The notes: a model not told the origin generated them from the letters alone. A stretch of 60,186 nt of DNA from Bdellovibrionales bacterium (GCA_022450595.1 JAKUPT010000010.1:1-60186); one strand, 5' to 3'. Positions 7,565-33,572 are shown, numbered from the stretch's first letter. Made by a program: numbers and translations.

Positions 7565-7568
7565 TCTA

Positions 7569-10442: not shown

Positions 10443-10448
10443 AGGTAC

Positions 10449-11035: not shown

Positions 11036-11068
11036 ATTACTCCTCCTAAGGCTAATATAGCTTTATTT

Positions 11069-11125
11069 TGTCTCAAATTGAAACAAAAACTCTGGGCTAA
11101 AGTCGTTTCATTTTTGTACCGATAT
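11069..11125 (+). promoter_or_regulatory. 17-bp palindrome plus sigma28-like promoter
   Basis: TGTCTCAAATTGAAACA (11069-11085) followed by TAAA-N16-ACCGATAT (11098-11125). Confidence 0.6.
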
Positions 11126-11132
11126 ATGGTTT

Positions 11133-12089
11133 ATGGATAAAAAAGACCAACAAATTAAATTTTTGATTACCACATTGGCGTTATTTATACTGCCATTAGC
11201 TTTTTTTCAAAACTGCGCAAAGTCAGATGCGGTTTCTCAGCTTAAATCCAGTGCTGGTACCTTATCCGGTGACTTAAGCTCTGGAAGTGTAATCACAAGT
11301 CAGCCACCGGCCGAGCAGGTGATCACACTTGGAGGCTCGACCACTTTGAGTGTCTCGGTTTTAACTGATGAGAGTGTTCAATACCAGTGGTACAAAGATC
11401 AAAACCCGATCTCTCAAGCCCAAAGTTATGAGTTAACTTTAAGTGATTTAAAACAAAGTGACTCTGGTGAGTACTATGTTGAAGTAAAAACTCCTACAAA
11501 AACCTTTAAGTCTAATGTTTCTAAACTAATAGTTACCACCTCTGAGTCTGGAAACTATGTCTCTGCACCGCCAAAAGATATAGAGATTGCAATGAATCAA
11601 ACAGGCCTTCTAACAAGCACTGTTGCAGGCAAGTCTCCTAACTATGTTGTGTGGTACAAAGATGGAGAGGTCATTGCTGAGACCAACCCTTTTTATGTGT
11701 ATCAAGGCAGTGGCAACACCTATAGTTTAAAAGTGCTGGCTGTGAGCCTAAACATTCAAGGCGATTATAGAGTTGAGTATATTTATGATGACGAACAAAT
11801 CGTGAGTCAAACAGCAAAGGTGACCATTAAACCTCTTGTGGGAATCACTCTTGATGATGGTAACTTTGCACGCATTTGGGCGCAACCAGGACACGAACAA
11901 GAAAACTTGAAGGCATACTGCTTAGCCACAGCTAACACGTCTGTGGTGGTCTCATCGACAGTATCAAGCCCCACCTTCTCTCAATATGTGGCTTATGATG
12001 GCAATGAGGATGGTGATGGTCAGTTCAGAATTTTTTCTGCAGGAATGAATGGCGCGCAATTTTACGACAGCATTGTTTGTGGAAATTAA
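11133..12089 (+). CDS. Immunoglobulin (I-set-like) domain lipoprotein
   Basis: FFQNC lipobox; two Ig-like modules (YQWYKD...DSGEYYV and WYKDG...GDYRV). Confidence 0.8.
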   Translation: MDKKDQQIKFLITTLALFILPLAFFQNCAKSDAVSQLKSSAGTLSGDLSSGSVITSQPPAEQVITLGGSTTLSVSVLTDESVQYQWYKDQNPISQAQSYELTLSDLKQSDSGEYYVEVKTPTKTFKSNVSKLIVTTSESGNYVSAPPKDIEIAMNQTGLLTSTVAGKSPNYVVWYKDGEVIAETNPFYVYQGSGNTYSLKVLAVSLNIQGDYRVEYIYDDEQIVSQTAKVTIKPLVGITLDDGNFARIWAQPGHEQENLKAYCLATANTSVVVSSTVSSPTFSQYVAYDGNEDGDGQFRIFSAGMNGAQFYDSIVCGN

Positions 12090-12604
12090 ACTTGTAAAAA
12101 GCTGTGAACTGGCTTGGTGAGTTTGTCTTTACCCTTCAAAGCGCTTATCTGCATTAAAAAATAAGAGCCTAAAACATCAGCCCCCATTTTTAAGCATAGA
12201 CTTTCAGCGGCTTGTGCTGTGCCGCCAGTGGCAAGTATATCATCGATAATGACCACTTTGTCATTTTTAGCAATCGAGCTTGTATGGATTTGAAGTTCAT
12301 CTTCTCCGTACTCTAAACTATATGTTTGAGATTGGGTTTGCCTTGGCAGTTTGCCAGGTTTTCTGGCTAATACCAAACCTACATTTAAGTGCTGAGCAAT
12401 GGCAGCTCCCAATAAAAAGCCGCGGGATTCAATACCGATGAGTTTTGTTGTGTCTTCTGGGATAGCTCTCGCAAAATGCCTAACTAAAGAAACAAAACAC
12501 ACATGGTTTTCAAATATGGGCGTGATGTCTTTAAAGACGATGCCTTTTTTTGGAAAATCAGGCACATCTATAATAAACTCTTCAATTTGTTTTAAATCAA
12601 TCAC
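12086..12604 (-). CDS. apt: Adenine phosphoribosyltransferase
   Basis: PDFPKKGIVFKDITP, ESRGF, RKPGKLP, LEYG and the VIIDDILATGGT PRPP motif. Confidence 0.97.
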   Translation of the reverse strand: MIDLKQIEEFIIDVPDFPKKGIVFKDITPIFENHVCFVSLVRHFARAIPEDTTKLIGIESRGFLLGAAIAQHLNVGLVLARKPGKLPRQTQSQTYSLEYGEDELQIHTSSIAKNDKVVIIDDILATGGTAQAAESLCLKMGADVLGSYFLMQISALKGKDKLTKPVHSFLQV

Positions 12605-12966
12605 TTAGCAAAACTCCACTCTTTAAAGCCAAGTTTTTTAGCTAACTCTAAGTCTTTTTTTGCAATCTCATAAACATTGGCCATGCCGGTGGGAGCGCCA
12701 CAGTTCATTGTGCGCATCAGGCCGTCGTTTCTTTTTTCCATTTTGTAAATCAGGAGTTCTTCCAGTTCAGACTTCATTTCACCAAGACTGATCACCTCTC
12801 CAAGGCCACACTGACGGCTTCCATCGTATTTATACACCCAAACCGTTTCTACATTTGCAGCCTTTGTGTCTTCATTTCCCATATCGGGCTTACGATTGCA
12901 ATTGCCCTGGGTACATCCAACAATAAATATAAAAAATAGTGAAAAAATTAATTTCATAAACATCAT
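12601..12966 (-). CDS. Hypothetical lipoprotein
   Basis: IVGC lipobox; YKYDGSRQC...CGAPTG. Start probably at ATG 12966, overlapping the bamB stop (ATGA). Confidence 0.7.
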   Translation of the reverse strand: MMFMKLIFSLFFIFIVGCTQGNCNRKPDMGNEDTKAANVETVWVYKYDGSRQCGLGEVISLGEMKSELEELLIYKMEKRNDGLMRTMNCGAPTGMANVYEIAKKDLELAKKLGFKEWSFAK

Positions 12967-14081
12967 CTGACTAGTTTTAGGTTCCATAAAATAGCGTCTC
13001 TTGAGATAAAGTAAACATGACCTTGATCTGTGACATTCACTGGGGCGGACACACCAAATCCTGTTGTGTATGTGGCAAGCTTGCGCCCAGTGTGGGCCTC
13101 TAAGGCCACCACATCCGCATCGCTTTCAGTAAACACAATCATGCCTTTGTGAAATACTGGAGTGGAAGCAATGCCTTTTTTGACCTTGTACTCCCATTTT
13201 ATATCACCAGTCTCAGGGCTTACAGCTACCACTTTAGAGTCTGAGGTTGAAACAAAAAGCAAATCTTTATTAAAACCCACTGTAGAAGGGCCACCTACAT
13301 CTACCTTCCAGATCACTTGCCCATTATTGGGGTTGAGTTTGTAAAGGTGACCGTCGTAGTTGGGCAGATATAAAGAGCCCCCTAATAGCAGAGGCTTTGC
13401 GTCCACATCATTGTACTTTAAGCTCGTTGCTAAGTTTTGCTCCCAGATCACAGCCCCTGTGAGCGCATTAAAAGCCATAGCGGCACCATCACTAAAGCCC
13501 ACATAGAGTTTACCGTTTAAAATAGCAGGCTTTGAAGCACCTCTAATGGTAAGCTCTGAGCTTTCAGTTCTTGAGTAGATCCAGCGTTGCTGACCATTAA
13601 AACGATCAAGAGCAATAAGCACATTATTGCCAGTTAAAAAATAAACATTTTGACCAGAAACAATCGGAGCCCCTAAGCCTTCAAAACGAATAGGAGCAGA
13701 CCATTTAGTCTTTCCTGTGTGAATGTCAACGGCGTAGAAAAAGCCATCGTTAGCAGAAAAGTAAAGTATGTTTTTAACAGCCGTTGCTGTAGACTCTACC
13801 CCACCTTTGATGTATTTGCTCCAAATAAGTGTGCCTGTGGTTTTATCAAAGGCTGTAATGCTATCAATAGCATTGCCAATAAACACATACTCATCATGAA
13901 TTAAAGCTTTTGCTTGTTGAAATTTTTTAGAACTTAAGTTGTTAGAGAGCTTGGTGTCTTTCGCCCAAACTCTAGAGAACTTTAACTTTTCTCTTTTTTG
14001 ACAAACTCCAGACTCACAGTTGAGCTTTAAGCTTTGACATCCTAGTGCAAAAAGTATTGTGCCGTACAAAAGTAGCTTCAC
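12963..14081 (-). CDS. bamB: Outer-membrane assembly lipoprotein BamB-like (PQQ-type beta-propeller)
   Basis: ALGC lipobox; repeated A-x-D-x-x-TG-x-x-x-W motifs; directly downstream of a YfgM-like TPR gene, as in the conserved yfgM-bamB order. Confidence 0.78.
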   Translation of the reverse strand: MKLLLYGTILFALGCQSLKLNCESGVCQKREKLKFSRVWAKDTKLSNNLSSKKFQQAKALIHDEYVFIGNAIDSITAFDKTTGTLIWSKYIKGGVESTATAVKNILYFSANDGFFYAVDIHTGKTKWSAPIRFEGLGAPIVSGQNVYFLTGNNVLIALDRFNGQQRWIYSRTESSELTIRGASKPAILNGKLYVGFSDGAAMAFNALTGAVIWEQNLATSLKYNDVDAKPLLLGGSLYLPNYDGHLYKLNPNNGQVIWKVDVGGPSTVGFNKDLLFVSTSDSKVVAVSPETGDIKWEYKVKKGIASTPVFHKGMIVFTESDADVVALEAHTGRKLATYTTGFGVSAPVNVTDQGHVYFISRDAILWNLKLVR

Positions 14082-16906: not shown

Positions 16907-17488
16907 TTGATGTGGTGCATTATGAATAGCCGCTACTCTCTTAACAAAACCAAATATTTGCTCGACCCTGAGGTTGAAAAGCTAACCTATCTTTTAAAAA
17001 GCCATATCGATAATGATCGCAGAAACTGTGTATTACTTCTTTTAGCCCTAAATATTGGAGCCAGGGCTCAGGAGCTTTTAAATATTCGCTGGAGTGACAT
17101 CAATGAGTACGACCAAACCGTATTTATTAGAGGCATTAAAAACAGTAACGATCGAGAGCTGCCACTGCCCGACTGGCTTTTTAGAGAATTATTAAAAATC
17201 AAATCAAACCCAGGAAAGCCTCCAAAGCTTGGTGGCGCCCAGCTTAAAATATCCCCTCAATATGTGTTCCCAATAACTTATAATCGCCTGAGGCAAATCT
17301 GGGAGCTTTACAGACCTGTAAATAAAAAGTTTCATGCTTTAAGGCATACATTTGCCATCAGGATCTATAAAAAGACAAAAGACATACGATTATTACAAGT
17401 AGCATTGGGGCACCGAAATATCACTAATACGATGATTTATGCGGACTATGTGTATTCTCAACAGGAGCTCAAAAAATTAATTCTATAA
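16907..17488 (+). CDS. Short tyrosine recombinase (catalytic domain only, FimB/FimE-like size)
   Basis: GAR (R), GIK (K), HALRH, LGH and TMIY (Y) are all present. The start may be ATG 16922. Confidence 0.9.
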   Translation: MMWCIMNSRYSLNKTKYLLDPEVEKLTYLLKSHIDNDRRNCVLLLLALNIGARAQELLNIRWSDINEYDQTVFIRGIKNSNDRELPLPDWLFRELLKIKSNPGKPPKLGGAQLKISPQYVFPITYNRLRQIWELYRPVNKKFHALRHTFAIRIYKKTKDIRLLQVALGHRNITNTMIYADYVYSQQELKKLIL

Positions 17489-19271: not shown

Positions 19272-22200
19272 TTATAGTTCATCTGCCCCGACATCCCAAG
19301 GCACACTTCGATTCGACCCTTCTATATCGATTGAAAATGGGAAGCTTGCATCACCGGAAAGGTCAGTACCAGCTCCTACCTGATCAGAGCTAGATCCCTG
19401 AATACGCAGATCATCGTTGGTGAAGTCTCCGTCGTCTGAAAAACTAACAAATAATTCACTTGTGGTTTGAGATGTTAAAAAACTATTCGCTCCAAAGTTT
19501 GTGGGCATAACAACATCTGTAATGTTGTAATCAGAGTCAGCATGCAATTGGAGAGTTCTTTTGCAACTATTTACATTACACTGTAGCGCCAAGGTATTTT
19601 TTAATATCATATTGCCCTCTTCGTGATTAAATCCATAGAGACTCCTAATAGTGGTGGTGTTATAAATACGCATAAAACCTCCACTTACTCTATAAAATAT
19701 CGCAGAAGAATAGCCCGCAATAATATTGTTTATTGAAAAACACTCACCACATCCAACAATAGACATTCCATTATTTCCCTGCCCAGCACTTCCTGAAAAG
19801 ATAAAGAGGTTATTTTTAATATAATGCTGACTATAATAATCGTCACTAGAGTTAACGTAAATCCCGTCAGCTGAACTATTTCCTGGTGATTGAACATATA
19901 TCTGCAGCCCCTCAATAATACTATTGTTAGCACTCATAATAATAGGTGTTGTGTCGGTGGTAACAATACGTACCGCAGAGGTGCTCCAAGCCCCAACATG
20001 TCGCTGGCTTACTCCCACTTCGGTGGGTGAAGAAGGGGCAAATAAATGAATATGATTAGCTCTAGTTGTTTTCCAACCAACATTAAAATTAACCCCCTCG
20101 CTAAACACAGCATCGTTGTAAAGAGCAAGGTGCCAGACTTCATCCGTACCAGTGAGTACAGATATATCTCGATCACCGGAGCCGTCAAAGCTGCGCAAAG
20201 CAAGGTCAATTCCAGTATTTTCAATTTGATTCTCAGCATCGGCTAAGGATGTATAAGACCTATAGATCGACCAGTCGGTATCAGATGTTGTCGCTACTGG
20301 GGTTCCACCCAAGCTGTTTTTTACAACAAACTGAGTTGATGAAACTCGAGAGTGAATAAATGCAATAGCATCAACAGTATTGGCTCCACTGCCATTACCC
20401 CCGCCATCAGAATCATACTGAATAGCATCCCCTACTCCTACGTTATCAGGCAAAGGGCTTGAAAATACTGCCGTCGATGCACTTATTGACATGGCATTTG
20501 CTCCGCCTACAGCTAAGGCCGAAGTGCTGCCGTATCCAACCGACCTATAAAAATGCACAGGATTAGGAAGGGGAAATGATTTGTTCAAAGGATCAGGGTC
20601 TGCCGTATCTGGGTCCGCAGCAATTGTGCGCACTTTTATAGTATCTCCTGGGTTATATCCTGCCGGAAGAGTTCTTATATCTGCGGTGAAAGCCTTAAAA
20701 CTCCTTGTCATTACAACAGAATTTCCCGTCTGCGGATCACAACCAGGGTTATCGGTATAATTGCAGTAATAAAAGGTAACTCTGACATCTAAATCGATAT
20801 CGCGTGTGGACTGCGCAGCGATCGAAAAACTATCCGTGTCCAACTTGTGAACCACTAACCCGTTCAACTGAATGTCGGTTAACCTAATGGTTGCATTTTG
20901 TGGCGACTGATAAACCCCCTCGGGGTCAGTGACAATCACACGTAGGTTTAGATAATCATTAGGGTCATTCGGCATCGTCAATCCTGTCACTGAAGCTACA
21001 TAGTTTGCCCCAGTAAGAGTCATTGCAGCCGATGAGCCAGCTTCTGGGTTACAACCAGGACTATCGGTCTCGTTACAATACCAAACTGTGGCCGCTGAGT
21101 TGGTCTCGGGGTCACCAGAACTTGGAACACTGATTTCAAAGCTTGTTCCAGTGGCTCTGACGAGTTCAATTGGAGAAAGAACTACTTGAGCAAGAGGAAC
21201 AGTGCCTGTTTTGGGTGAGTCGATAGAACCATTTGGATCTGATGCAACCGCCGCCACTGACATAAGATCAGCCTCATCGTTAGGTGCTGTAAGACCCGAG
21301 ACTGTCGCAGTGAAGGTTGTACCAGTTCGATTCATCAAAACAGATGTCCCTGTGGTAGTAGGATCACACCCAGGACTGTCAGTCACATTGCAGTAATAAA
21401 GAGTGACAGAGCCGTTTTGTTCTAAATCTCCTTTTGATGGCACTGTTGCAGTGAAACCTGCTTTGGTCTGAGCACTAAAGGTAAGACCATCTAAATCCAA
21501 AGCTGTGCCATCTAGTGTTACTGTCGATGATATTGGGCTGTTTGAAGTTCCATTTGTATCCGTTGCTACAGCCCGAATATTAAATACATCAGTTGGAGAA
21601 GTTAGTCCTGAAATAGTCACAGTATAGGAAGAGCTACCTCTAGTCATGGCAGAAGAGGCTCCCGCACTAGGGTCACAACCTGGCACTTCACTAGCATTAC
21701 AATAGAAAAGATTGACGGAGCCATTAGTATTCATATCACCGGTAAAATCCACTGAGGCATCAAAGGCGCTTGAGGTGATATTACTAGCTGCTAAATTGCT
21801 AATTGATAGAGAGTATATACTTAAAGTTGTTGTAGTGCTCTGAGGAGAGCCACTAGAGCCATCTGTATCGGATGCAACTACTCGTATATTAAAAGTATCC
21901 CCTTCGTCATTGGGCGAACTGAGAGAACTTATGCTGGCAGTATAGCTAGATGTACCTTTAGTCATTGCCACACTAACTCCAGTACTTACTGGATCACAAG
22001 CTGGAGCGTCGGTTGAATTACAATAATAAAGTGTCGTATTACCATTTGTATTTTCATCGCCATTAAAGTCGACACTGACGTCGAAAGAGTTGTTAGTCAC
22101 ATTACTTATAAGTAAATTACTAAGAGACAAAGAATAGGTTTTTAATGTCACAGTTGAGCTGAGTGGTGACCCCATAGTGCCATCAGGGTCCTGTGCTATG

Positions 22201-22910
22201 AGCTCAATGTTCAACACATCTGCTTCATCATAAGGAGAGGATAATGAAGTAATGCTTGCACTAAATTTTGATGCTCCTTTAATCATATTTATTGAAGATC
22301 CCACACTGCTTGGGTCACAACCAGGAGTGTCGGTATTATTACAATAATAAAGAACAGCGGAGCCATTTTCATTAAAATCACCAAAAAAATCACCCGTAAC
22401 ATCAAAAGAATTATTAGTAATATTTGATATTGTTAGGTTCGAAATAGACAGCCCTTCTTCACTTAGTAGCTGAAAACTCCCTGTAAAACGAGTTGGACTA
22501 TCTTTATCTATATCTGTGATATCTATAATGTAATTAAAAGAATCTTCAGGATCATTAGGAGAACTTAAATTACTTATAAGACCTGAAAAAGTGCTACTGC
22601 TTGTTCGTATTAGATTTAAAGAGACACCAGTCTTAGCATCACAACCAGGAGTATCTGTATTGTTGCAATAAAAAAACTTAGCTGTAGCATTTGAATTTAA
22701 ATCACCAGTATAATTAATATCAACTTTTAAAGAGTCTGATGTCAGGACAGTTATGCTGTGGTTTTCAACAGATATCTTATCATTGGCTAGATACCCTTCT
22801 TGTATCTTACCAATACTACCACCGCAAGCGACTAAGAAAAAAGGAGTAGTAACGCTTACAAAACAATGGAATAACCTTAAAATATACGTACAATAATTAC
22901 AGGCATTCAC
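19272..22910 (-). CDS. Large surface lipoprotein/adhesin: 7 x ~105-110-aa repeats plus a C-terminal beta-helix-like domain
   Basis: LVAC lipobox; seven [YFW]YCNx[TS][DE]xPxC[DN] repeats; C-terminal DIEG..R...WDVGADE motif like those ending pectin-lyase-fold surface proteins. Confidence 0.78.
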   Translation of the reverse strand: MNACNYCTYILRLFHCFVSVTTPFFLVACGGSIGKIQEGYLANDKISVENHSITVLTSDSLKVDINYTGDLNSNATAKFFYCNNTDTPGCDAKTGVSLNLIRTSSSTFSGLISNLSSPNDPEDSFNYIIDITDIDKDSPTRFTGSFQLLSEEGLSISNLTISNITNNSFDVTGDFFGDFNENGSAVLYYCNNTDTPGCDPSSVGSSINMIKGASKFSASITSLSSPYDEADVLNIELIAQDPDGTMGSPLSSTVTLKTYSLSLSNLLISNVTNNSFDVSVDFNGDENTNGNTTLYYCNSTDAPACDPVSTGVSVAMTKGTSSYTASISSLSSPNDEGDTFNIRVVASDTDGSSGSPQSTTTTLSIYSLSISNLAASNITSSAFDASVDFTGDMNTNGSVNLFYCNASEVPGCDPSAGASSAMTRGSSSYTVTISGLTSPTDVFNIRAVATDTNGTSNSPISSTVTLDGTALDLDGLTFSAQTKAGFTATVPSKGDLEQNGSVTLYYCNVTDSPGCDPTTTGTSVLMNRTGTTFTATVSGLTAPNDEADLMSVAAVASDPNGSIDSPKTGTVPLAQVVLSPIELVRATGTSFEISVPSSGDPETNSAATVWYCNETDSPGCNPEAGSSAAMTLTGANYVASVTGLTMPNDPNDYLNLRVIVTDPEGVYQSPQNATIRLTDIQLNGLVVHKLDTDSFSIAAQSTRDIDLDVRVTFYYCNYTDNPGCDPQTGNSVVMTRSFKAFTADIRTLPAGYNPGDTIKVRTIAADPDTADPDPLNKSFPLPNPVHFYRSVGYGSTSALAVGGANAMSISASTAVFSSPLPDNVGVGDAIQYDSDGGGNGSGANTVDAIAFIHSRVSSTQFVVKNSLGGTPVATTSDTDWSIYRSYTSLADAENQIENTGIDLALRSFDGSGDRDISVLTGTDEVWHLALYNDAVFSEGVNFNVGWKTTRANHIHLFAPSSPTEVGVSQRHVGAWSTSAVRIVTTDTTPIIMSANNSIIEGLQIYVQSPGNSSADGIYVNSSDDYYSQHYIKNNLFIFSGSAGQGNNGMSIVGCGECFSINNIIAGYSSAIFYRVSGGFMRIYNTTTIRSLYGFNHEEGNMILKNTLALQCNVNSCKRTLQLHADSDYNITDVVMPTNFGANSFLTSQTTSELFVSFSDDGDFTNDDLRIQGSSSDQVGAGTDLSGDASFPFSIDIEGSNRSVPWDVGADEL

Positions 22911-23173: not shown

Positions 23174-25954
23174 CTAGTAAAACATAAATCTACAACTCAT
23201 TCCTACATTTTGATTTTCATGAATAACCTTTATTGCGTCATCAAAATACGGTCTATAGCTTTGATCCATAGAGCTTACATGTTCTTTAAAAGCTGTACGA
23301 AACTGACTAGTACCATGCTCATAGTATTTTATAAACTTATCCCATACATCCATGTCCGGAGAATTTAAAACATATGGCATCAATGACAAAACTTGTTTGG
23401 ATCTAATGTCTGTTTTAACAACTATATCAAAAATCTCATAATGCTTCATAATTTCAAAGGCATTTATAAACTCAGTTTTGTTATTTCTTTCGTATTTATT
23501 TAAATTGTCTATAAAAAGTCTTAAATAGTGTTGGGAGCTAAACATATCTTTTCGGTATAAATCCCTTAACCTAATTGTGAGCTCTTCAAATAAGTCAGTT
23601 CCAACTAAGTATCCAGACAATGAAAAGAGCACATTGTTCCAGCTTTGATGTTTACTTTGAGATAAATGAAATTCATGATCAATAATATTTAAAATTCTTA
23701 CCGCCTGCATTTTAAGTGGATCATTATTATTAAGTTTTAATGCATCTATAAAAACACTTTCTAAAAAGTAATTATTGGGAGTATTAATTGTAGTTTTCTC
23801 AGCGTTTTTTCTTACTGACTCAAGCCATTTGTCAAAAAAATCCTCTGAAAACATCAACCTAAGCATATCAATTGAAATAATTTTGAAAAGGTAGTCTTCA
23901 ACTTTTTCATACAAATTATATTCTGTAATAATTTTTAATTTATCAGCTAACTTTGTTATGTCTTTTTCAAACTCAATAACCTTAGATAAATACTCTGCAT
24001 CAATAATATCTTTATAGTTTTTTACTACATATTTAAAGAATCTGTCTTTATTTTTAGCTTTGCTATCATGAAGAATTTCTTCAATATTAACAAGTAGAGT
24101 GGTGAAATCCATCACTCCAGTACTATAGCTTTCTTTTAGATTATGAATATCTAAGTCTTTAACAAGTCTAATGGCATTTTTTGTTTTATCTTCGCTCGAT
24201 TTTATAAATCGTGAGACTCTTTGAATACCAACACTTTGATAGTGCTTAAAGGCTTCATGATCGATTTGTGATTTTAAAACGTATAAGACCTTTAAAAAAT
24301 AAAGAGCTTTTTGATATTCTGTTGGAGGTTGAGGTTGAATTTTGTCTCTATCTTTTTTTGGTACTCTCCAAACAAAAGGCTTATAATTACCTTTGTTATT
24401 ATGAATATGTCCATCTTTTTCACTAAAAGAAGAACTCCATGCAGATAAAGAATATAATCTATTTTCTGGTGATATCACATAAAGCTCTGAATGATTTTTG
24501 TTAAAGACAACAAAAGATTTATAGCCAAGCTTTTGAGCCAAAATCTTTCCTCTTAGAGCTGTATCCCGACAGTCATTAGCACAACCCAACACATCATCGT
24601 TTGCTAATAGTTTTATAACATCTAGCTTATGAGTTTTTGAGGCCTCAGCCTTTAATCCAACTAAAATTGGCAAAGCCGCCTTCATTTGTTCATTGAAGCT
24701 TGTATATCTTAACTTTAAATCATTAGCTACAATATCTAAGAAAACACTGACTTCAGAATTAAAATCTAGAAACATTTTAGGATGTTGACCGCCATGTGAT
24801 TGGCTACCATCAATAATCATATAATGTTCTAATTTATCTAAAGACTGTAATCGCTTTGGAATCTCTCTTTCTAATGTACTTAGTGTATGTGTATTTCTTT
24901 TAAAATAATCCATCCAATATGAAGTTGGTCTGGTTATTTTTCTAGATGAGACTTTTCTCTCAAGAGAAGTTTCAATAAATTCAGCAAGCTTTGGGATATT
25001 GAATTTTTCATATATATCAATTGCATAGCTAGGTTTCGTGCTTTCTATTAAAGATTTTGTTAAAATTTTATTCATTCTTTGCAAGATATAATGAAGACTA
25101 TTTCTATCCAAATCAGCCTCAGTGACTGAGTTTAGATAGTCTGTAATAATTTTTTTAACCAAATCATCTGACTGAACATCACCTTTTAATTCGTATCTTG
25201 CCAGGTTAGCAATATACTTTACAGCGGAAACGATTTCAGGATTTTTGCCGGCCTTTGCTAAAGCAGTTTCAGAATGATTTTCTGAATGAAAGTAGTAGTT
25301 TGTTTCTTTCAAAAAAGCGTCCAAATAAGATTTTCCATCAGGGGTATTTTTGGTTCTCACATCGTAAAGTGAGGGATATTTTTTTGATAGTTTTTTGTTA
25401 AGTGGTAACACTCTTATCATTCCACTAGAAATGGCATCAGTGTTTTGTTGGTTAATATTTTTGTTTTCAAAAATTCCACGATCATTTTCATAATGAAGTG
25501 ATACAGTTTCCCATCTCGTTTTTCCCTCAACAACCTCTGGAAAATGCTCCTTCAGCTCTTCAACTAAGTTATTTCTGATTTCATGTGTGGCATCAACCGC
25601 AATATCAACATCTGAAATATGACTTAAAAGATGCCTTGAAAAGCTTTTTGGAAGTCCTGTTGCTCTTTTATTACCTTTTTTTCTCTCTAGATATTCATGA
25701 ACAGCAGATACAATCTGATGTGCGGCCCCACCGTAAATATAGATGGGCATAGATCTAGGCGTCCAATAAGTGGAGTCTTTATCGTGTTGTTTATTATTTT
25801 CTGATAAAAACTTTTTAATGATTTCAGCTTCTTGAGTTTTCGATAAGTACTCTAAAACCGCATCTTCAAGAACCACACTCTCAAGTCGAACTCTGTCGAT
25901 GGCAAAAACATTTATTGATAAAATTGTTATTATAAAAAACAACAGACTTTTCAT
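23174..25954 (-). CDS. Secreted protein with nucleotidyltransferase-like (CCA/poly(A) polymerase head-like) N-domain and possible transglutaminase-like domain
   Basis: Signal peptide MKSLLFFIITILSINVFA; IYIYGG...SDVDIAVD; NDCRDTA...NHSELYV; C-terminus SCRFMFY. Confidence 0.6.
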   Translation of the reverse strand: MKSLLFFIITILSINVFAIDRVRLESVVLEDAVLEYLSKTQEAEIIKKFLSENNKQHDKDSTYWTPRSMPIYIYGGAAHQIVSAVHEYLERKKGNKRATGLPKSFSRHLLSHISDVDIAVDATHEIRNNLVEELKEHFPEVVEGKTRWETVSLHYENDRGIFENKNINQQNTDAISSGMIRVLPLNKKLSKKYPSLYDVRTKNTPDGKSYLDAFLKETNYYFHSENHSETALAKAGKNPEIVSAVKYIANLARYELKGDVQSDDLVKKIITDYLNSVTEADLDRNSLHYILQRMNKILTKSLIESTKPSYAIDIYEKFNIPKLAEFIETSLERKVSSRKITRPTSYWMDYFKRNTHTLSTLEREIPKRLQSLDKLEHYMIIDGSQSHGGQHPKMFLDFNSEVSVFLDIVANDLKLRYTSFNEQMKAALPILVGLKAEASKTHKLDVIKLLANDDVLGCANDCRDTALRGKILAQKLGYKSFVVFNKNHSELYVISPENRLYSLSAWSSSFSEKDGHIHNNKGNYKPFVWRVPKKDRDKIQPQPPTEYQKALYFLKVLYVLKSQIDHEAFKHYQSVGIQRVSRFIKSSEDKTKNAIRLVKDLDIHNLKESYSTGVMDFTTLLVNIEEILHDSKAKNKDRFFKYVVKNYKDIIDAEYLSKVIEFEKDITKLADKLKIITEYNLYEKVEDYLFKIISIDMLRLMFSEDFFDKWLESVRKNAEKTTINTPNNYFLESVFIDALKLNNNDPLKMQAVRILNIIDHEFHLSQSKHQSWNNVLFSLSGYLVGTDLFEELTIRLRDLYRKDMFSSQHYLRLFIDNLNKYERNNKTEFINAFEIMKHYEIFDIVVKTDIRSKQVLSLMPYVLNSPDMDVWDKFIKYYEHGTSQFRTAFKEHVSSMDQSYRPYFDDAIKVIHENQNVGMSCRFMFY

Positions 25955-25984
25955 AATATTCCCCTAAACACATAACCCTTAATA

Positions 25985-28900
25985 TTATTGAAATAACGAA
26001 ATACACTTCCCCGCGGATCTTCCGCTGTCAACACTCATAAGATTAAAAAATGCCCGTGTTTTATTCACATTTTCTATTTTTGGAGATGTTTTTTTGTACT
26101 TTGTCATCATTATCTTTTCAAACTGCTGTTGAGAAATCTCACCGTTTTTCATTAAACGCTCTACGATTTTTTCAACAAACTCCCACTTTTCACTCAGCTC
26201 ATATATCGCGATCTCTGTGGCCTGCTTAAAAAGCTCTTCACTTTTTTTAAGCATTTGTGGACTTAATCTAAAGTTTTGTTGATCATTATTCGATACCATT
26301 GGCAGCTCTGATATAAATTCTGGAAAGATCCCATATTCGGTGATAGCTGATTTAATAATAGATCTTGCCATTTGAACATCTTGCCTCATTCCTGCATCAG
26401 CCTCAAATCCGGCCATTTGCTGTGAAATGCTACCTGCAAGTAGACCTGCCACTCTGTACAGTACACTGTTTTGAGTCACTGAGGGACTTCCCGGCATTGG
26501 GGTGTATCTTGCGTATCCAAGATAGTGCCCTCGTCCAACTATGGTGATAAAAGCCAATTTTTGGTTGGTGTATTTCGGGTTGTTAACCACAGCGTGACCG
26601 GCCTCATGAAAGCTTGTTAATTTAGCTTGATCTTTGGATTGAAGATGAATGACATCGGCAAAGTCAGTCACTTCAACGGAGACTGTATCTATCACTTTGC
26701 CTTTGTTGTTTTTAATATTAGCAACAATTTCTACCTTTCTTTCGTAGTTTGTTACATCTTCAATAAAAGGCTTGTTAGGCATATTGTCTTTAATTTCTAA
26801 ATTTATAGTTGCATCGGTTAACTGGTGGGACATCAACTTAATTCGAGCTTTTACAATGGTCGATGTAAGCTGAGATTCAATCACACTTCTTAAGCTTCTA
26901 GCCCCCTTGTCGTGAGTGAAAAACACACGTCCAAGAGTCTTTTCAAACTCTTTGTCATAATTAATTTTAATTTCTTGTTCTTTTAGTTTTTCGTGAATAG
27001 GTGATAAAAATTTTGGAGCAATGTATTCTGCAACTACCTCGCGCGTCAGTGGCTTCATTAAAATCACATCTAGCATTCGACCTAAAAAGGCTTCTGGAAC
27101 TCCACTTTCAAGAAGCAACTTATGAAGAGTTGACTGCTTTCGGCTATGATCCCAAATAGTCAGTCGTATATCATCGGCAGCCACACCCTTAAATAAATTT
27201 TCACCATCATTACCTGTAAAAATAAATACATGCTTTGAAAGGTCATACACTTTACCTGTAGCTGTAGATTCCCAACGCCTTTCGTCTGTGATTTCATACA
27301 TCTCTTTAAACAGTTCATCTTTTAAGGCTTTATTATTTCCACCCATATTAGAGGCTTCATCAAATAAAAGCACACCGCCTTCTGGGTTTGAAATTAAATA
27401 CCTTTCAAATTGCCCAGCCTTATCACCACTGACATAACCTGGAGGCGGGTTAAATACTTTATTAAAGTCCCCTTCAAACCTAATGGTTCCTAAGTTAATA
27501 AATCCTGTTCTATTGCTTGAACCATAAAGGGTTTCTGCTAAGGCTTTGGCAGTTTCTGACTTCCCTGTTCCTGTAGACCCAATAAGAAATAAGCTCATAG
27601 CTCTTTGGCGTTCTTGAGAATCTCCAATATGAGAGATAACCGCTTCACTGATTTTTTGGATCATTTCATTTTGTCCAAAAATTTTATTACTCATATTTTT
27701 ATGAAGATTTTCAATAATATTTAATATGCTCTTGTCTTGAAGTGGGTCTGTCACAGGCTTTGCTGGAGCATCTATTTTAGTCAATTCTGTATCATTGTTT
27801 GAAACCACAAATTTTTGATCTTGATAGCTGATATCTACTTTAATGTCTTCGCCCCTGTCTACTACATGCTCTGCAATAGATAATTTTATGTCAGTTAAGA
27901 TTCTTTCCATTGAGCGAATAATAGGCCTGGCCCCATATTCACTGTTGTAATTATGGTTCACTAAAATTTCTATGACCTCTTTGTCGATTCTTAATTCAAT
28001 GCCCGTGTCATATTTAAATCGACTAACGATCTCATTGAGATAATTCACAGCAATGTGCTCTGCAGAGGTTTTATTTAATGGAGCTGCAACTGTAAAAATG
28101 TCTATACGGTTTTTAATTTCTGGTGGAAGCTTTCCTTGATCCCCATAGTTACCGCTACTCTTGTGGTCTACCATCTCTTTTAAGCTGTCAGAGGTCATTT
28201 TTCCTAAAAAGTTGCGCATTTCAGACTCAGTCCAAGATTCCCAAGACTTTGGAAAGATCATGTCCACACTTCTGTTTGAAGTCATAATAAAAAGAAGATT
28301 TTTAACGTGACGGACCTTACCATCACCACCAGTTATTATACCTCTGTCTTGTAGCTCCATAATCCTTTGTAAGTGATCTGGATGCATCTTCTCAATTTCG
28401 TTAATAAGAACGATACCGCCCTTTCCTCCACGGCCAGGGTCGTCTATCCACTCTATAAACTGTCCAGACGTCTTTTGAGAAGATTCAATACCATTTGGGG
28501 CACCAAACAAGCTGTTGCCTTCAAATCCACCTTTAGAGAGTTCATTGCCGTTGATTTCAAAAAAGGCCCCTCGATTGTTTAACACAATCTCGCTCAAACT
28601 TTGCCCCAGGTAGGTTTTACCAGTTCCCGTAGTTCCTACTATATAAACCGAGGCCACGTTTTTATTTCTTGATTGAAGAAGTCCCGAGTAGGCGTTAAGA
28701 ACGTCTTTATTCATTCTCTCTTGGCCCACAACTTTTTCATTTAGCTTTGCTTCCACCTGATTAAAGAACTTAAAAAACTCAGAAAAGTTATTTGGGTCAA
28801 CAGGAAGACTGTAATACTCTCGTACAATTTCAGAGAGCTCATTTTTACCAATTTCTTTAATGGCTTCATCAGAGGTGGTCGAGTTTCTAATGGCAATGGA

Positions 28901-30148
28901 TTCAAGGATTTTAATGCTTCCATCTACTTTACCGTTGTTTGGAAGAAGTTTTAATGAGTCCTCAATCACTCGATCTATGATCTCTTCTTGAAACCTCACC
29001 CCATGGCGCCTTTCAACCTTAGTGATCCAGGTGTCGTAAAGTATCTGTTTCACTCTGTCATTTGGAAGCTCTTCAACACCAACTTGTTTGACTCGTCTTA
29101 AAAAAGCCTTATTGTCCTTAAAAGCCAAATTGAACTCTTCAGAGGTCGAAGCAAATATAAACTTTAAATTGCCTTGTGATTCTAGATAGCGTTTTAATGC
29201 TTCAACTTGGGCTTTTTCTAAAGTGTGAACTTCATCAATAAAAATAGCGATGGGTTGCTTAAGCTCTTTTTGAGCCGCTGAAACGGCCTCGACATACATT
29301 TCAATAGCTGCAGCCTGCGAGGCACTGTCGTTGGATTTTGCTAGAGTTGAAATCTTTGCCGGTGTGGTTTCAATGACTGTTAAGTCTTTTAAACTTTCAA
29401 AAGATCGGTTTTTAGGAAGCTGGTTATTAAATGAGATCTCATCAATTGCAACAGCAATGGAAGTTTTACCTACACCTGCTGGCCCTACAAGCACAGGGTT
29501 ACGACCTTTAATTCTTGCTAACACCTCAAGTGTTTGCATCACCTCTTTGTCACGACCTACAGTGGGAATGTATTCGTTGGCGGCCTTTTTCTCTAAAGCC
29601 TCATCACGCAAAAAGCCAACGGTACCCTCTAAGATAACTTCACCAAATTTTAAAGAGGCTATTTTGTCTTTTATAGAGGCATCTTCTGAAACCAATGAAG
29701 ACATACTTGTAAGCTCATATTGAGGTGAGTTTTGTAACCGGCTTTTTAAGTTATCAACTGCCGTATGAATAAACTGAACACCTTTTTGATCAGCAAGCTT
29801 TCCTTCAGAATTGGCAGCTTCAAATCTTTCAATCAGATCGGAGATTTTTCCTGAAGTTTCAGCATTGATAAAATGATTTAATGAATCAAAGGCTGCAGAA
29901 AGAATAAAACTATTAAGTTTTTTATTATTATTAACACTTTTAAGTTGTGTTTCGACGATTGTGACAACTTTGTCATAAACTTCAAAATACTTATAACTTT
30001 CAAGTGTTTTAAGTGTTTCACTAACAACTACGGCATCGGTATTTCCTAAGTTGGAAATAACATCTCTAACTTCATAAAGTTTTTCCTGTGAAGCCTGTAA
30101 TTGAAAACAAAAGATCGTTGCTATAATAAAGCAAGACAATATACGCAT
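25985..30148 (-). CDS. Signal-peptide-bearing triple AAA+ (ClpA/B-like) ATPase fused to an FtsH-type M41 zinc protease
   Basis: Walker A motifs GPAGVGKT, GTTGTGKT and GSTGTGKS; Walker B motifs IFIDE, VLINE and LLFDE; sensor-2 GARP/GARS; HEAGH. Start ATG 30148 (RBS GGGGTG) gives MRILSCFIIATIFCFQLQA. Confidence 0.85.
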   Translation of the reverse strand: MRILSCFIIATIFCFQLQASQEKLYEVRDVISNLGNTDAVVVSETLKTLESYKYFEVYDKVVTIVETQLKSVNNNKKLNSFILSAAFDSLNHFINAETSGKISDLIERFEAANSEGKLADQKGVQFIHTAVDNLKSRLQNSPQYELTSMSSLVSEDASIKDKIASLKFGEVILEGTVGFLRDEALEKKAANEYIPTVGRDKEVMQTLEVLARIKGRNPVLVGPAGVGKTSIAVAIDEISFNNQLPKNRSFESLKDLTVIETTPAKISTLAKSNDSASQAAAIEMYVEAVSAAQKELKQPIAIFIDEVHTLEKAQVEALKRYLESQGNLKFIFASTSEEFNLAFKDNKAFLRRVKQVGVEELPNDRVKQILYDTWITKVERRHGVRFQEEIIDRVIEDSLKLLPNNGKVDGSIKILESIAIRNSTTSDEAIKEIGKNELSEIVREYYSLPVDPNNFSEFFKFFNQVEAKLNEKVVGQERMNKDVLNAYSGLLQSRNKNVASVYIVGTTGTGKTYLGQSLSEIVLNNRGAFFEINGNELSKGGFEGNSLFGAPNGIESSQKTSGQFIEWIDDPGRGGKGGIVLINEIEKMHPDHLQRIMELQDRGIITGGDGKVRHVKNLLFIMTSNRSVDMIFPKSWESWTESEMRNFLGKMTSDSLKEMVDHKSSGNYGDQGKLPPEIKNRIDIFTVAAPLNKTSAEHIAVNYLNEIVSRFKYDTGIELRIDKEVIEILVNHNYNSEYGARPIIRSMERILTDIKLSIAEHVVDRGEDIKVDISYQDQKFVVSNNDTELTKIDAPAKPVTDPLQDKSILNIIENLHKNMSNKIFGQNEMIQKISEAVISHIGDSQERQRAMSLFLIGSTGTGKSETAKALAETLYGSSNRTGFINLGTIRFEGDFNKVFNPPPGYVSGDKAGQFERYLISNPEGGVLLFDEASNMGGNNKALKDELFKEMYEITDERRWESTATGKVYDLSKHVFIFTGNDGENLFKGVAADDIRLTIWDHSRKQSTLHKLLLESGVPEAFLGRMLDVILMKPLTREVVAEYIAPKFLSPIHEKLKEQEIKINYDKEFEKTLGRVFFTHDKGARSLRSVIESQLTSTIVKARIKLMSHQLTDATINLEIKDNMPNKPFIEDVTNYERKVEIVANIKNNKGKVIDTVSVEVTDFADVIHLQSKDQAKLTSFHEAGHAVVNNPKYTNQKLAFITIVGRGHYLGYARYTPMPGSPSVTQNSVLYRVAGLLAGSISQQMAGFEADAGMRQDVQMARSIIKSAITEYGIFPEFISELPMVSNNDQQNFRLSPQMLKKSEELFKQATEIAIYELSEKWEFVEKIVERLMKNGEISQQQFEKIMMTKYKKTSPKIENVNKTRAFFNLMSVDSGRSAGKCISLFQ

Positions 30149-30489
30149 AATCACCCCAATAATTATTTTTATATCCCTCAACATCTTGGTATTGAAATCT
30201 ATGCATATATAAGTCAAGTGCTAGAAATTTAGTAATAATGAAATTCTTATATTTGAATGTAATTATGTAAGTAGAAGCTTAGGTAAAATTTAATCATAAC
30301 AAGCCGTTCTCGACACTAAATCTATCAATCAGAGTACTTATTAAGCAATCTTGATAACTTTTTACAAAATTGTATAAAAAGCATTTTTATCATCTATTAA
30401 AAGTGAACTTAAAGAAGAATCAGCTAATAGAAGTATATAAATATTATAGGGATAAGTTGGATTGTAAAATTGACTAGATGTAGGAATGT

Positions 30490-31365
30490 TTACTTCTTAT
30501 TTGTTTTAAGAAACTCTGGCACCTTTAAAGGAATAAAGTCTTTAATTAGTTTTCGGATTGAATTAATTAAATTAAATCTTCTATACCAAACAAGTTTACT
30601 CAATTGCTGATCTGCGGTTTTATAACCTTCATCAATAAGTTTTTTCTTATTGGCTGAGTTATCAAACAGGCTATATTTACTTAAATCTAAAGAGATCTTG
30701 ATGTCGGCCAATCTCACTTGTTCCTTTGTTCTGGAGTCAATGGCAATATCTATGGCATTTCCAACAACAGTAAATATATCCATGGGTTTTTGGTATTCAT
30801 TAACTCCATTTAAATCTACAGCCACAGTAATTCCAGCTCCCATATTTTTTACGGCTGCTACGGGTACATTTTGAGTGATGCCCCCGTCAACAAGCAGTCT
30901 CCCCTCATGCTCAACAGGTGTAAATACTCCAGGCACAGCAACGGAGGCACAGACAGCCGGTATGAGCTTTCCTTTTTTAAAAATAACAGACTCCCCTGAT
31001 GTGATGTCTGTAGTGCAAATAGCTAGAGGGATTTTTGCATCTTCAATATTTACATCTCCAATATCATTTAAAAGCATTTGTTTTATAGAGTCTGTGCTTA
31101 CAAATCCTCTTTTGTCTAAATTAAGCTTAAAAACACTTTTAGCTTTTAAACGCTCACCAAGCTGATCTATCTCATCTAAATTTTTCCCAAAGGCATAGTA
31201 GCTGGCTACAATAGCTCCGACACTGGTGCCTGATATGTAAGAAATGTTTATATTTTTGTCGTCAAAAGCTCTTAGCACACCTATATGCGCAAGACCTTTA
31301 GCAGCTCCCCCGCCGAGGGCAAGACCGATTTTTTTATTAAACGGATTAAAAGATAGTTTTTCCAT
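30490..31365 (-). CDS. Patatin-like phospholipase (RssA/NTE family)
   Basis: GGGAAKG, GTSVG and DGG motifs. Confidence 0.92.
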   Translation of the reverse strand: MEKLSFNPFNKKIGLALGGGAAKGLAHIGVLRAFDDKNINISYISGTSVGAIVASYYAFGKNLDEIDQLGERLKAKSVFKLNLDKRGFVSTDSIKQMLLNDIGDVNIEDAKIPLAICTTDITSGESVIFKKGKLIPAVCASVAVPGVFTPVEHEGRLLVDGGITQNVPVAAVKNMGAGITVAVDLNGVNEYQKPMDIFTVVGNAIDIAIDSRTKEQVRLADIKISLDLSKYSLFDNSANKKKLIDEGYKTADQQLSKLVWYRRFNLINSIRKLIKDFIPLKVPEFLKTNKK

Positions 31366-31980: not shown

Positions 31981-33519
31981 TCAATCTCCAGAACAATTCA
32001 TAACAATGGGCAAGTGATCGCTCATCACTTCTGTGAGTGAGCTGTAATTGCCTGATTGAAAGTTTAAAATAAACTTTTCATAATAATCAGTTAGCTCTTT
32101 ATCCAGGTACTCTCTGTCAAACAACTCGTTATTGTCTTCATCTTTTCGTTCAATAAAGTCTTTAAGAGTCATCCCAAAAAACGTGACAGAGTCAGGTTTG
32201 CTATCTAAAAAGTAATCTTTAAGCTCACCTTTTGAAGAAATCGCATTCATTTTTCCATGAAAGTCTTTAAGGTACTCTAAGTAGTCCTCACTGGATTCAT
32301 CTTCTTCTGGATCAATAAAATTATAGGCGTGGGCACTTTCAGCGTCACAAAAGTCTATGCGGTCCGTATCAAAGATAAAATGATCATAGCTGCTGGCAAG
32401 ACCACTGTCTCCGTAGGTTGTAGGGGTATCGACAAAAATATTATAATCGCCTAAGCCCCAATGACTTCTAAACAACAATCTCCAGTAGTAGGCGTAATCG
32501 TCACCAGATTCATACTGAGTGGGCAAGTTAAAATCACCCAGCCACATAATGTTTTTATGTTGATCGTCTAAGCTTCTTTGACGTATGTACTCTGCAATAC
32601 GGCCTGCCACAATAGACATTTCAAAGTAGCGAGAAGTTTCAAATTTTGAATTCAGCATATCTTCAATTTGTATAAGGTCTTCTTCATCTTCAAAGTCTTC
32701 GAATTGTTTTTTAAAGTAATAACGTCTCAGATCCGTTAAAAAGATACTTCTATAAGCCCCAAATCGAGTGTGCATAGCGACCACAGTCATATTGTTGTTG
32801 CCCACTTTAAATTCTGACGCAAACACTCCACGTGCTACATACTCCACAAACCGGTTGTGTAAGTTGTCGTTTTTAGTTTCAAGATTTACATAACAAGACT
32901 TGCCTTCATACTCGCACAAAGGAGTTTCAATATTTTTGACCTTACTGGCTCGATAGTAGATACCAATGGTCTCTCTGTTGGTGTAGTTGCCCGTTGGGTG
33001 TGAACCAATGGTTAAAGACCAGCTAGGATCCAACTTTTGAAGCTCTTCTAGTAGAATTAAATAAGCTGGCAACACAAAAACATCAGCGTATTTTTTGATT
33101 TCTTCAGGGTTTTCAGAGTTCTTTAAAATGGTCATCAGCCTTCTATTTAACTTTTGTGTGGGGCTGCTTTGACCAGGGCTCATAATTTCAAGCACTGAAA
33201 CTATATCCCACTGATTAAACATCTTGGCCATTAGGGTGAGGTTTTTATAGGGCCTAGCTCCTAGTTTTAAACTATTAAGGCTTGCCACTTTTACCTCGGC
33301 GTCTGAGGCATAAGATGACTCCTGACTTTCATAGGTGATCCCTGAATTCTCCTCAAAACTTGTGGGACAATCCCAATCTTTTGAGGTTTGAATTTGATAG
33401 ATCTCACAAACTATGTAGGCTTCATAAAGCCAATAGTCATCTTTGTAGTCATCGTAATTTTTAATAAATTCTGAGGCTTGAAGAAATTGAAATAAGAAGA
33501 CAAAAATAAATAGACCCAT
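31981..33519 (-). CDS. Secreted endonuclease/exonuclease/phosphatase (DNase I-like) family protein
   Basis: Signal peptide; DIVSVLEI, MHTRFG, LGDFN, YDHF and SDHLPI motifs. ATG 33519 follows GGGAG. Confidence 0.8.
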   Translation of the reverse strand: MGLFIFVFLFQFLQASEFIKNYDDYKDDYWLYEAYIVCEIYQIQTSKDWDCPTSFEENSGITYESQESSYASDAEVKVASLNSLKLGARPYKNLTLMAKMFNQWDIVSVLEIMSPGQSSPTQKLNRRLMTILKNSENPEEIKKYADVFVLPAYLILLEELQKLDPSWSLTIGSHPTGNYTNRETIGIYYRASKVKNIETPLCEYEGKSCYVNLETKNDNLHNRFVEYVARGVFASEFKVGNNNMTVVAMHTRFGAYRSIFLTDLRRYYFKKQFEDFEDEEDLIQIEDMLNSKFETSRYFEMSIVAGRIAEYIRQRSLDDQHKNIMWLGDFNLPTQYESGDDYAYYWRLLFRSHWGLGDYNIFVDTPTTYGDSGLASSYDHFIFDTDRIDFCDAESAHAYNFIDPEEDESSEDYLEYLKDFHGKMNAISSKGELKDYFLDSKPDSVTFFGMTLKDFIERKDEDNNELFDREYLDKELTDYYEKFILNFQSGNYSSLTEVMSDHLPIVMNCSGD

Positions 33520-33572
33520 ACCCACTCCCAATAAAAATATCTATTGGGAGCTTCTGGGAGTCAAATTTAAAA

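Follow-up and report, generated by a model that had tools for sequence, protein, structure and literature searches.

A single-cysteine terminal tag on predicted exported enzymes of cytoplasmic type in a Bdellovibrionales bacterium

The operon and its two products

Within a stretch of 60,186 nucleotides from a Bdellovibrionales bacterium (GCA_022450595.1, JAKUPT010000010.1:1-60186; hereafter, the window), two co-oriented genes on the minus strand at positions 23174-30148 form an operon, with gene 1 upstream and gene 2 downstream, 30 bp apart (Table 1), as an earlier model-made reading of the sequence alone had described. Gene 1 encodes a fusion of three AAA+ modules with an M41-type protease, and gene 2 a member of a nucleotidyltransferase family. 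Both products are predicted to be exported, and both end in a short motif built around one cysteine, GKCISLFQ and MSCRFMFY, each followed by a stop codon; these endings, which the sequence-only reading had singled out, can be read directly from the DNA. It is this motif, referred to below as the tag, rather than the two genes alone, that constitutes the new object: it recurs on approximately 56 exported-type proteins of this genome, 22 with a C-terminal and about 34 with an N-terminal form. Four points can be regarded as firm, namely that the tag is real, that it obeys position rules, that it contains a single thiol and that it is associated with exported enzymes of cytoplasmic type, whereas its role is a matter of graded probability. 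The source organism is probably a predatory (Bdellovibrio-group) bacterium.

Both genes are preceded by a G-rich, Shine-Dalgarno-like stretch, which in gene 1 lies immediately 5' of the ATG at 30148. An alternative, longer frame of gene 1 starts with TTG; the ATG at 30148 is the better start, because of this ribosome-binding-like stretch and because a 95% identical database protein, P0153, starts at the same methionine. No terminator-like site is present on the minus strand in the spacer, and the promoter-like site upstream of gene 1 is a consensus match only, in a scanned region that holds 27 such sites vs 30 expected in shuffles.

Table 1. Features of the operon, in window coordinates
Feature	Residues	Position	Strand	Description
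Region upstream of gene 1		30149-30489	-	AT-rich, intergenic; one promoter-like site at 30468-30440
Gene 1	1387 aa	25985-30148	-	Triple-AAA+ / M41 protease fusion, predicted exported
Signal-peptide-like segment, gene 1	1-20	30089-30148	-	M-R, 13 hydrophobic residues, Q-L-Q-A-S
AAA+ module 1	~185-430	28859-29596	-	ClpA/B D1-like; Walker A G222, G225, G227, K228 invariant
AAA+ module 2	~480-770	27839-28711	-	AAA_2 + ClpB_D2-small; Walker A G505-K511 invariant
AAA+ module 3	~805-1117	26798-27736	-	Best NCBIfam match here ClpV/TssH-like D2
Peptidase_M41 domain	1170-1346	26111-26641	-	PF01434, 72.3 bits vs cut-off 29.9
Terminal tag, gene 1	C1382-Q1387	25988-26005	-	C-I-S-L-F-Q; read from DNA
Intergenic spacer		25955-25984	-	30 bp; Shine-Dalgarno-like AGGGGA ahead of gene 2 ATG
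Gene 2	926 aa	23174-25954	-	Nucleotidyltransferase-family protein, predicted exported
Signal-peptide-like segment, gene 2	1-18	25901-25954	-	M-K, 12 hydrophobic residues, N-V-F-A
Nucleotidyltransferase head and neck	68-340	24935-25753	-	Class II, CCA-adding / poly(A)-polymerase-like
Region without assigned domain	361-920	23195-24874	-	Mainly helical in a poor model
Terminal tag, gene 2	C921-Y926	23177-23194	-	C-R-F-M-F-Y; read from DNA

From a structural point of view, protein 1 is predicted by its domain content to be a self-contained unfoldase-protease, in which three Clp/Hsp100-type AAA+ rings would feed an FtsH-type M41 zinc protease. The sequence-only reading had ascribed AAA+ ATPases and a protease to one of the two genes, and three AAA+ modules together with a Peptidase_M41 domain recognized by Pfam bear it out. 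A 12-sequence alignment (26-45% identity) shows no variation at HExxH, at any of the three Walker A loops or at the acidic Walker B residues of modules 2 and 3, the invariant positions including Walker A G857-K863 and Walker B D930-E931 of module 3 and H1181, E1182 and H1185 of the zinc site HEAGH. Equally invariant is C1382, the sole cysteine of the mature protein (~1367 residues), the only other two cysteines, C6 and C14, being contained in the signal-peptide-like segment.

The resemblance to FtsH consists of an M41 domain with HExxH placed directly after an AAA+ module bearing a GYV-type pore-loop, that is, of an unfoldase-protease in one chain. In contrast to FtsH, protein 1 is built on three AAA+ modules of Clp/Hsp100 type where FtsH has a single one of its own type, ends in the single-cysteine tag, and is matched by the FtsH family model TIGR01241 at only 61 bits vs a cut-off of 600, over residues 1171-1340 only; furthermore, FtsH has two transmembrane helices, whereas hydropathy windows give protein 1 one short signal-peptide-like segment, its topology being predicted. 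The class I Clp/Hsp100 ATPases ClpA, ClpB and ClpV are resembled in the D1-like and D2-like modules with ClpB_D2-small, in the Walker A and B motifs and in the best family matches. However, protein 1 stays far below the respective cut-offs (258 vs 993 bits for ClpA, 247 vs 1232 for ClpB, 243 vs 885 for TssH) and goes beyond these ATPases in having a third AAA+ module, in starting with a signal-peptide-like segment and in being covalently fused to a protease. In their sources, its relatives are named only "AAA family ATPase" or "ClpA/ClpC".

The nucleotidyltransferase-like domain that had been proposed for the other gene is likewise upheld for protein 2, by fold and by motif. The whole protein has no Pfam match at E <= 0.1, and so no membership in a poly(A)-polymerase-type profile, and a word-based homologue search with it returned the self-match alone; the family surfaced through a profile and through searches of genomes. 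Relatives present in several copies in related genomes align with residues 68-340, and G75, G76, D115 and D117, which form the GG...DxD motif, as well as E149, are invariant in the family alignment. The AlphaFold2 model of these residues, built on that alignment, has a predicted local distance difference test score (pLDDT) of 77.4, and a Foldseek search against the PDB yielded 17 matches at E <= 0.001 with template modelling scores (TM-scores) of 0.36-0.43. With tRNA nucleotidyltransferases and CCA-adding enzymes leading these matches (E 4e-5 to 1e-3), protein 2 is assigned, on the strength of the model, as a divergent class II nucleotidyltransferase with a predicted activity. It shares with CCA-adding enzymes and poly(A) polymerase I the Pol-beta-like head-and-neck fold and the GG...DxD carboxylates, but differs from them in its identity of only 9-17% to the structural matches, in an insert of ~40 residues between GG and DxD, in the signal peptide and cysteine tag, and in belonging to a family with variable ankyrin, FGE-sulfatase-like and hydrolase modules.

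Residues 361-920 are harder to define. They have no BLAST match among 150 family members or in the genome's own proteome, a PDB sequence search returned nothing below E 0.2, and Pfam at E <= 10 gave nothing relevant. An Atlas search produced weak Transglut_core matches with scores below 0.9, and in a single-sequence AlphaFold2 model (pLDDT 51) the region of this transglutaminase lead lies below 50. A papain/transglutaminase-like Cys...His core around residues 455-500 is possible; the only two internal cysteines of protein 2, C458 and C462, fall within this putative core.

The tag in the genome and among relatives

The genome assembly (3.06 Mb, 156 contigs, 97% complete) was reduced to a crude set of 2711 open reading frames (ORFs), consisting of the longest frames of at least 100 aa after removal of overlaps, in which signal peptides were called by a crude hydropathy rule. 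By this rule, the N-termini of the two proteins look like cleavable Sec signals, as had been anticipated: they display an n/h/c layout, a charge bias for N-in orientation and no second membrane segment, neither protein having, beyond the N-terminus, a 19-aa window with mean hydropathy >= 1.6.

In this set, 22 ORFs end in C..[LM]F.?$, where composition would predict 0.33 and the frequency of the word inside proteins 0.44, an enrichment of about 50-fold. The cysteine lies at position 5 from the end in nine ORFs and at position 6 in 13, while every other position over the last 60 residues has two at most. Chance is ruled out as the origin of the motif by this excess and by the positional concentration. 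Nor is the motif a DNA repeat or a terminator at gene ends: its leucine uses six codons and the DNA flanks are unrelated, and it is therefore a motif at the protein level. As the sequence-only reading had supposed, the ending is concentrated among predicted exported proteins: a signal-peptide-like start is present in 19 of the 22 carriers, compared with 1042 of all 2711 ORFs (Fisher p 4.7e-6). In most carriers, the hydrophobic core gives way to small residues at -1 and -3.

The same pattern is found at the other end of the protein. In the first 25 residues past the hydrophobic core, C-x-x-[LIVM]-F is present in 45 proteins, vs 0-5 in each of eight later windows, and about 34 of them are left once lipobox-bearing and membrane proteins are excluded. 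Profiling of the tag across genomes with DNA patterns was abandoned, because here it returned 88-279 matches vs 58-138 in controls, swamping the ~10-20 true sites.

A further property of the carriers is their scarcity of other cysteines. Of 20 C-tagged proteins, 16 have no cysteine besides that of the tag. C-tagged proteins have a cysteine frequency of 0.0007 outside the tag, against 0.0083 for the other ORFs with a signal-peptide-like start and 0.0107 for all the rest. Values as low are found in both families of the operon, at 0.0007 for that of protein 1 (95 relatives) and 0.0013 for that of protein 2 (132 relatives).

Regarding the identity of the tagged proteins, a Pfam scan covered 54 of the ~56, the two proteins of the operon being scanned separately. 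Above the cut-off it recognized an M41 protein with AAA+ (a paralogue), an ABC1 atypical kinase (with a weak M48 match), an AbiEii nucleotidyltransferase, an arginase, RNB, a ParB-like nuclease, RelA_SpoT, Amidoligase_2, Peptidase_C1_2 (bleomycin-hydrolase type) and two alpha/beta hydrolases, while weak matches point to a protein kinase and, twice, to CYTH. No typical wall-degrading or outer-membrane family is present among the annotated tagged proteins, which, judging from their families, would act mostly on nucleoside triphosphates (NTPs), RNA, DNA or folded cytoplasmic proteins. The expectation that cytoplasmic-type domains would be enriched among carriers receives support, most annotatable carriers being NTP-dependent or nucleic-acid enzymes, within a set of about a dozen proteins and without an untagged control.

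Beyond this genome, the tag is looser, consisting of C-x-x-[LIVM]-[FLY] followed by 0-10 residues (12 in one tail), of which CxxLF$ is a short form peculiar to this lineage. The AAA+/M41 family includes 114 long relatives, with a cysteine within the last 20 residues in 108 and the strict C..[LIVM][FLY] in 65, vs 0.1 expected; 95 of the 114 have a signal-peptide-like start, several of the rest being truncated. For the nucleotidyltransferase family, a profile search gave 644 cluster representatives. Among the best 150 of these, the strict tag is C-terminal in 50, N-terminal in 26 and at both ends in none, and 132 have a signal-peptide-like start, 120 of which carry a cysteine at one end or the other. 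In 30 representatives scanned with Pfam, those with a terminal folded ankyrin or FGE-sulfatase-like domain use the N-terminal tag. Because the tag occurs at either end but never at both, a modular handle fits better than a part of the fold. The third family, unrelated to the other two, is an exported RNase II/R-like (RNB) family, in which 8/8 close relatives have a signal peptide and the tag as the only mature cysteine; by comparison, the 112 canonical RNase R-like matches lack such a start and contain 7 cysteines at the median.

The two families are also linked in gene order. AAA+/M41 precedes nucleotidyltransferase in 11 of 70 loci fetched around genes of the latter family, with gaps of a few tens of bases in at least seven, and the order is also present in genomes G034 and G028. 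In G034 (locus L037, genes at 6154-10455 and 10459-13629), the nine residues N-R-C-A-D-L-L-S-G end the AAA+/M41 protein and recur just past the signal peptide of the adjoining nucleotidyltransferase protein, so that a single tag is found at opposite ends within one operon. In G028, a 1677-aa signal-peptide-like, tag-ended protein lies directly upstream of a tagged nucleotidyltransferase protein (locus L039, 6110-13716), and a three-gene tagged cluster is completed by an M41-type protein whose tagged C-terminus immediately precedes it in the same stretch (L071). In a further genome, G008 (L041, L042, L045, L046), the nucleotidyltransferase family is expanded to nine matches, some of them truncated copies, which sit among transposase-like ORFs and an ankyrin-repeat-like ORF. 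All titled loci and source-named relatives belong to Bdellovibrionota metagenome-assembled genomes or bear older labels for that group, the labels being Bdellovibrionales, Pseudobdellovibrionaceae, Bacteriovoracaceae, Oligoflexia and the older "Deltaproteobacteria" and "Proteobacteria". The genome of the window has its family or order in common with carriers among the related genomes and therefore most likely belongs to the same phylum.

A possible delivery route and competing explanations

The chemistry of these enzymes makes sense only where NTPs, RNA and folded proteins are available, and an ATP pool is absent from the periplasm. The sequence-only reading had taken the two proteins for effectors that act inside another cell, and, as far as sequence goes, this is supported: we lean, by a modest degree, towards two Sec-exported effectors that would act in another cell's cytoplasm and be sorted by a docking tag with a single cysteine. 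That the tag marks an undescribed delivery route of the Bdellovibrionota, with a mixed-disulfide handover to a shared carrier or translocon and unfolded threading into the cytoplasm of the other cell, is a more tentative proposal, which we consider less likely than not. Held with no greater confidence is the idea that, along such a route, the tag would let the whole range of cytoplasm-directed effectors of these predators be read from sequence.

The sequence of events would start with the Sec system taking the proteins to the periplasm. Having no other cysteines, they would form no disulfide bonds and would be threadable through a second channel; disulfide-bonded proteins are poor substrates for narrow translocons. 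The terminal Cys-x-x-L-F face would then dock on a shared receptor, carrier or translocon, probably via its free thiol, and the proteins would thus be sorted toward the other cell; on a helix, Cys, Leu/Met and Phe at i, i+3 and i+4 would have their side chains on one face. Once in the ATP-containing interior of the target, protein 1 would unfold and degrade proteins, and RNA would be tailed or modified by protein 2. The RNase II/R-like, RelA/SpoT-like, kinase and nuclease proteins that bear the tag would be at work there too. Since 3' tailing of bacterial RNA promotes exonucleolytic decay, protein 2 may cooperate with the tagged RNase II/R-like enzyme. As regards published work on these predators, Bdellovibrio nucleases with predicted export sequences have been hypothesised to act on prey nucleic acid (PMC3593177), and a Bdellovibrio bacteriovorus reporter with only a 20-residue Sec signal is reported to reach the supernatant (PMC12622784).

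It is nevertheless important to stress that a number of observations weigh against effectors sorted in this manner. Export is predicted by a crude hydropathy rule applied to crude longest-frame ORFs, and the C-tagged AbiEii and arginase ORFs, which may be chance matches, are without a signal-peptide-like start. With 33 of 54 tagged proteins lacking a Pfam family at E <= 0.01, the bias to enzymes of cytoplasmic type rests on approximately a dozen proteins, a small number. The Walker B position of module 2 in protein 1 (residues 583-584) is N-E, where D-E is usual, with E584 invariant in relatives, and from its sequence this ring may bind ATP but hydrolyse it poorly. Tagged genes are unclustered, 20 lying within 10 kb of another vs 15.7 +/- 4.4 at random, and no receptor, carrier or dedicated gene for the tag was found. 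Dense use of the tag is patchy as well: in 400-kb samples of three related genomes, each expected to hold ~7 tags at the density of this genome, there were 0 strict C-terminal and 0-1 N-terminal tags, although one of them (G006) has about four looser C..LL tails. Finally, the target cell may be either bacterial prey or a eukaryotic host.

Some of these features could be accounted for by a tether on the producer itself, which we regard as unlikely while giving it real weight. The lone thiol would be acylated or disulfide-bonded to an envelope protein, with Leu-Phe helping it to sit in a membrane. The enzymes would then stay attached to the producer, at its outer membrane, at its surface or on vesicles, until contact or fusion with another cell allowed them to act. 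A single, conserved terminal cysteine beside hydrophobic residues and a tag that functions at either end are both tether-like, and paralogous true lipoproteins of this genome, in which the lipidated cysteine is followed by T-[AS]-V-F, share the C-x-x-[LIVM]-F spacing. However, these paralogs amount to one evolutionary observation, the residues preceding the N-terminal cysteine are unlike a lipobox, and we know of no bacterial enzyme that S-acylates a C-terminal cysteine, which further counts against a tether. Lipidation by a host is a different matter: effectors of Legionella, Salmonella and Pseudomonas have terminal cysteines lipidated by their hosts, and if the organism or its lineage lived with a protist, the tag cysteine could be S-palmitoylated or prenylated in the host cytosol and direct the proteins to host membranes. 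Ankyrin repeats in many N-tagged members of the nucleotidyltransferase family, the presence of kinase-like and patatin proteins, and the small size (1.2-1.6 Mb) of some genomes of the same family would suit such a life. We nonetheless consider it improbable, since the cysteine is at the CaaX position (-4) in 0/22 C-tagged ORFs, all having it at -5 or -6, the Bdellovibrio group is known for predators of bacteria, the RelA/SpoT-like, RNB, ParB-nuclease and FtsH-type domains suit bacterial targets at least equally, and type III, effector-type type IV and type VI systems were not found in the assembly with the queries used.

The tag might also protect the producer, the thiol forming a mixed disulfide or the hydrophobic end being read by a periplasmic protease or chaperone, so that dangerous enzymes are kept inactive or removed until release. 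The tagged enzymes, when active, would be harmful to the cell that makes them, their genes were not seen to have immunity genes as neighbours, and periplasmic PDZ proteases do read hydrophobic C-termini; yet an N-terminal tag cannot be read as a free C-terminus, a direct plug of the active site is unlikely for one tag placed over unrelated active sites, and most of these enzymes idle in the periplasm anyway, because there is no ATP there. A role in safety or quality control therefore seems to us a slim prospect. Slimmer still, and close to negligible, is the chance that the N-termini are uncleaved anchors and the enzymes stay in the producer's cytoplasm, as FtsH does, the cysteine having a local role. 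FtsH-type proteases are normally membrane-anchored with cytoplasmic domains, and ATP is present there. Nevertheless, the sole hydrophobic segment is short (12-13 residues) and has its positive charge on the N-side, from which the bulk of the protein is predicted to lie outside the cytoplasm; the small residues after its core, noted above for most carriers, argue in the same direction. Extreme cysteine depletion with a lone terminal cysteine would also be unexpected of cytoplasmic proteins, the non-signal ORFs of this genome having 1.07% cysteine.

When effectors sorted by a cysteine tag are compared with known sorting systems, the closest layout is that of RxLR/PEXEL in oomycetes and Plasmodium, where a large and diverse effector set carries a short linear motif within a few residues after the signal peptide; the tag differs in being bacterial, unrelated in sequence, based on one cysteine and able to stand at the C-terminus. 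The CaaX box of eukaryotic prenylation, borne also by some Legionella effectors, likewise places a cysteine ahead of hydrophobic residues at the C-terminus of an effector-like protein, but the tag cysteine is at -5/-6, or further in relatives, and never at -4, has an N-terminal form as well, and is borne by proteins with Sec signal peptides. Sortase-type signals (LPXTG, PEP-CTERM, GlyGly-CTERM, MYXO-CTERM) are also short terminal motifs common to many exported proteins; in contrast, they precede a transmembrane helix and a basic cluster, whereas the tag is followed by 0-12 residues and has an N-terminal form too. None of eight tails (0/8) matched the NCBIfam sorting-signal models at E <= 10, these models being perhaps too long for 45-aa queries. 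The lipobox [LVI][ASTVI][GAS]-C differs in that Q, S, K, E, N or V mostly precede the N-terminal tag cysteine, in a set kept only after lipobox matches had been excluded. Unlike the C-terminal signal of outer-membrane beta-barrels, the tag has Phe as its last residue in only 9 of 22 ORFs, the other 13 varying (Q in 4, Y in 3, plus R, W, G and others); its carriers are AAA+, nucleotidyltransferase and RNB enzymes, and again an N-terminal form exists. Likened by description only, the inner-membrane translocation domain of pyocin G-type nuclease bacteriocins (PMC9040868) is a shared element that brings cytotoxic enzymes into the target cytoplasm, although it is a folded domain and not a tag of 5-6 residues.

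Neither Pfam nor NCBIfam yielded a sorting signal that matches the tag, and full-text searches of the open literature turned up neither such a signal nor a description of the motif or of exported AAA+/M41 fusions; subscription papers and supplements lay outside the search, and a prior description is possible. It has long been asked by what means predators such as Bdellovibrio, periplasmic or epibiotic, carry enzymes across from their periplasm to the inside of another cell. If delivery by the tag holds true, it would give a direct catalogue of effectors acting in the cytoplasm, ~56 here and most of unknown function, which would include a secreted unfoldase-protease together with RNA-modifying and RNA-degrading enzymes. 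The tag might also be an experimental handle for finding the delivery machinery, and possible uses extend to a portable cargo tag for engineered predators and to new antibacterial enzyme activities.

Secretion genes and genomic neighbourhood

To our knowledge, no injection system is known in predators such as Bdellovibrio. With the queries used, no recognised injection machine was found in the 97% complete assembly, a result that does not establish absence. The assembly contains four secretins and a single FHIPEP protein, probably the flagellar one, and TssC of the type VI sheath has no match in it. Matches to TrbI (type IV) fall in two clusters that resemble integrative and conjugative elements (G000 C79:9000-28999, L211, and C86:12000-31000, L212) and that also carry recombinase, Replic_Relax, FtsK-type, TraC (TraC/VirB4-type) and TrbL genes; type IV secretion was rejected as the route, because genes of the recombinase, relaxase and FtsK types accompany these matches.

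Directly downstream of the operon, at 19272-22910 (-), is a gene for a 1212-aa predicted lipoprotein with the lipobox L-V-A-C, seven tandem repeats of ~95 aa, each with a paired-cysteine Y-C-N-x-T-D-x-P-G-C-D-P, and then a long C-terminal region; it has no Pfam family. Paralogous large lipobox lipoproteins are encoded in the window at 1709-4423 (-) and 7569-10469 (-), and elsewhere in the assembly (G000 C7, C13, C108, C142). In this family, the lipidated cysteine is followed by T-[A/S/N]-V-F, which places a tag-like C-x-x-[LIVM]-F spacing on true lipoprotein signals.

The operon may lie inside or beside an acquired island. Between 16000 and 26000 of the window, the GC content drops to 0.31-0.34 vs ~0.38-0.40 elsewhere, and a phage-integrase-family ORF of 193 aa is located at 16907-17488. 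Upstream of the operon, the neighbours are a patatin-like phospholipase without an obvious signal peptide at 30490-31365 (-) and a 516-aa signal-peptide-like protein with no Pfam family at 31981-33531 (-).

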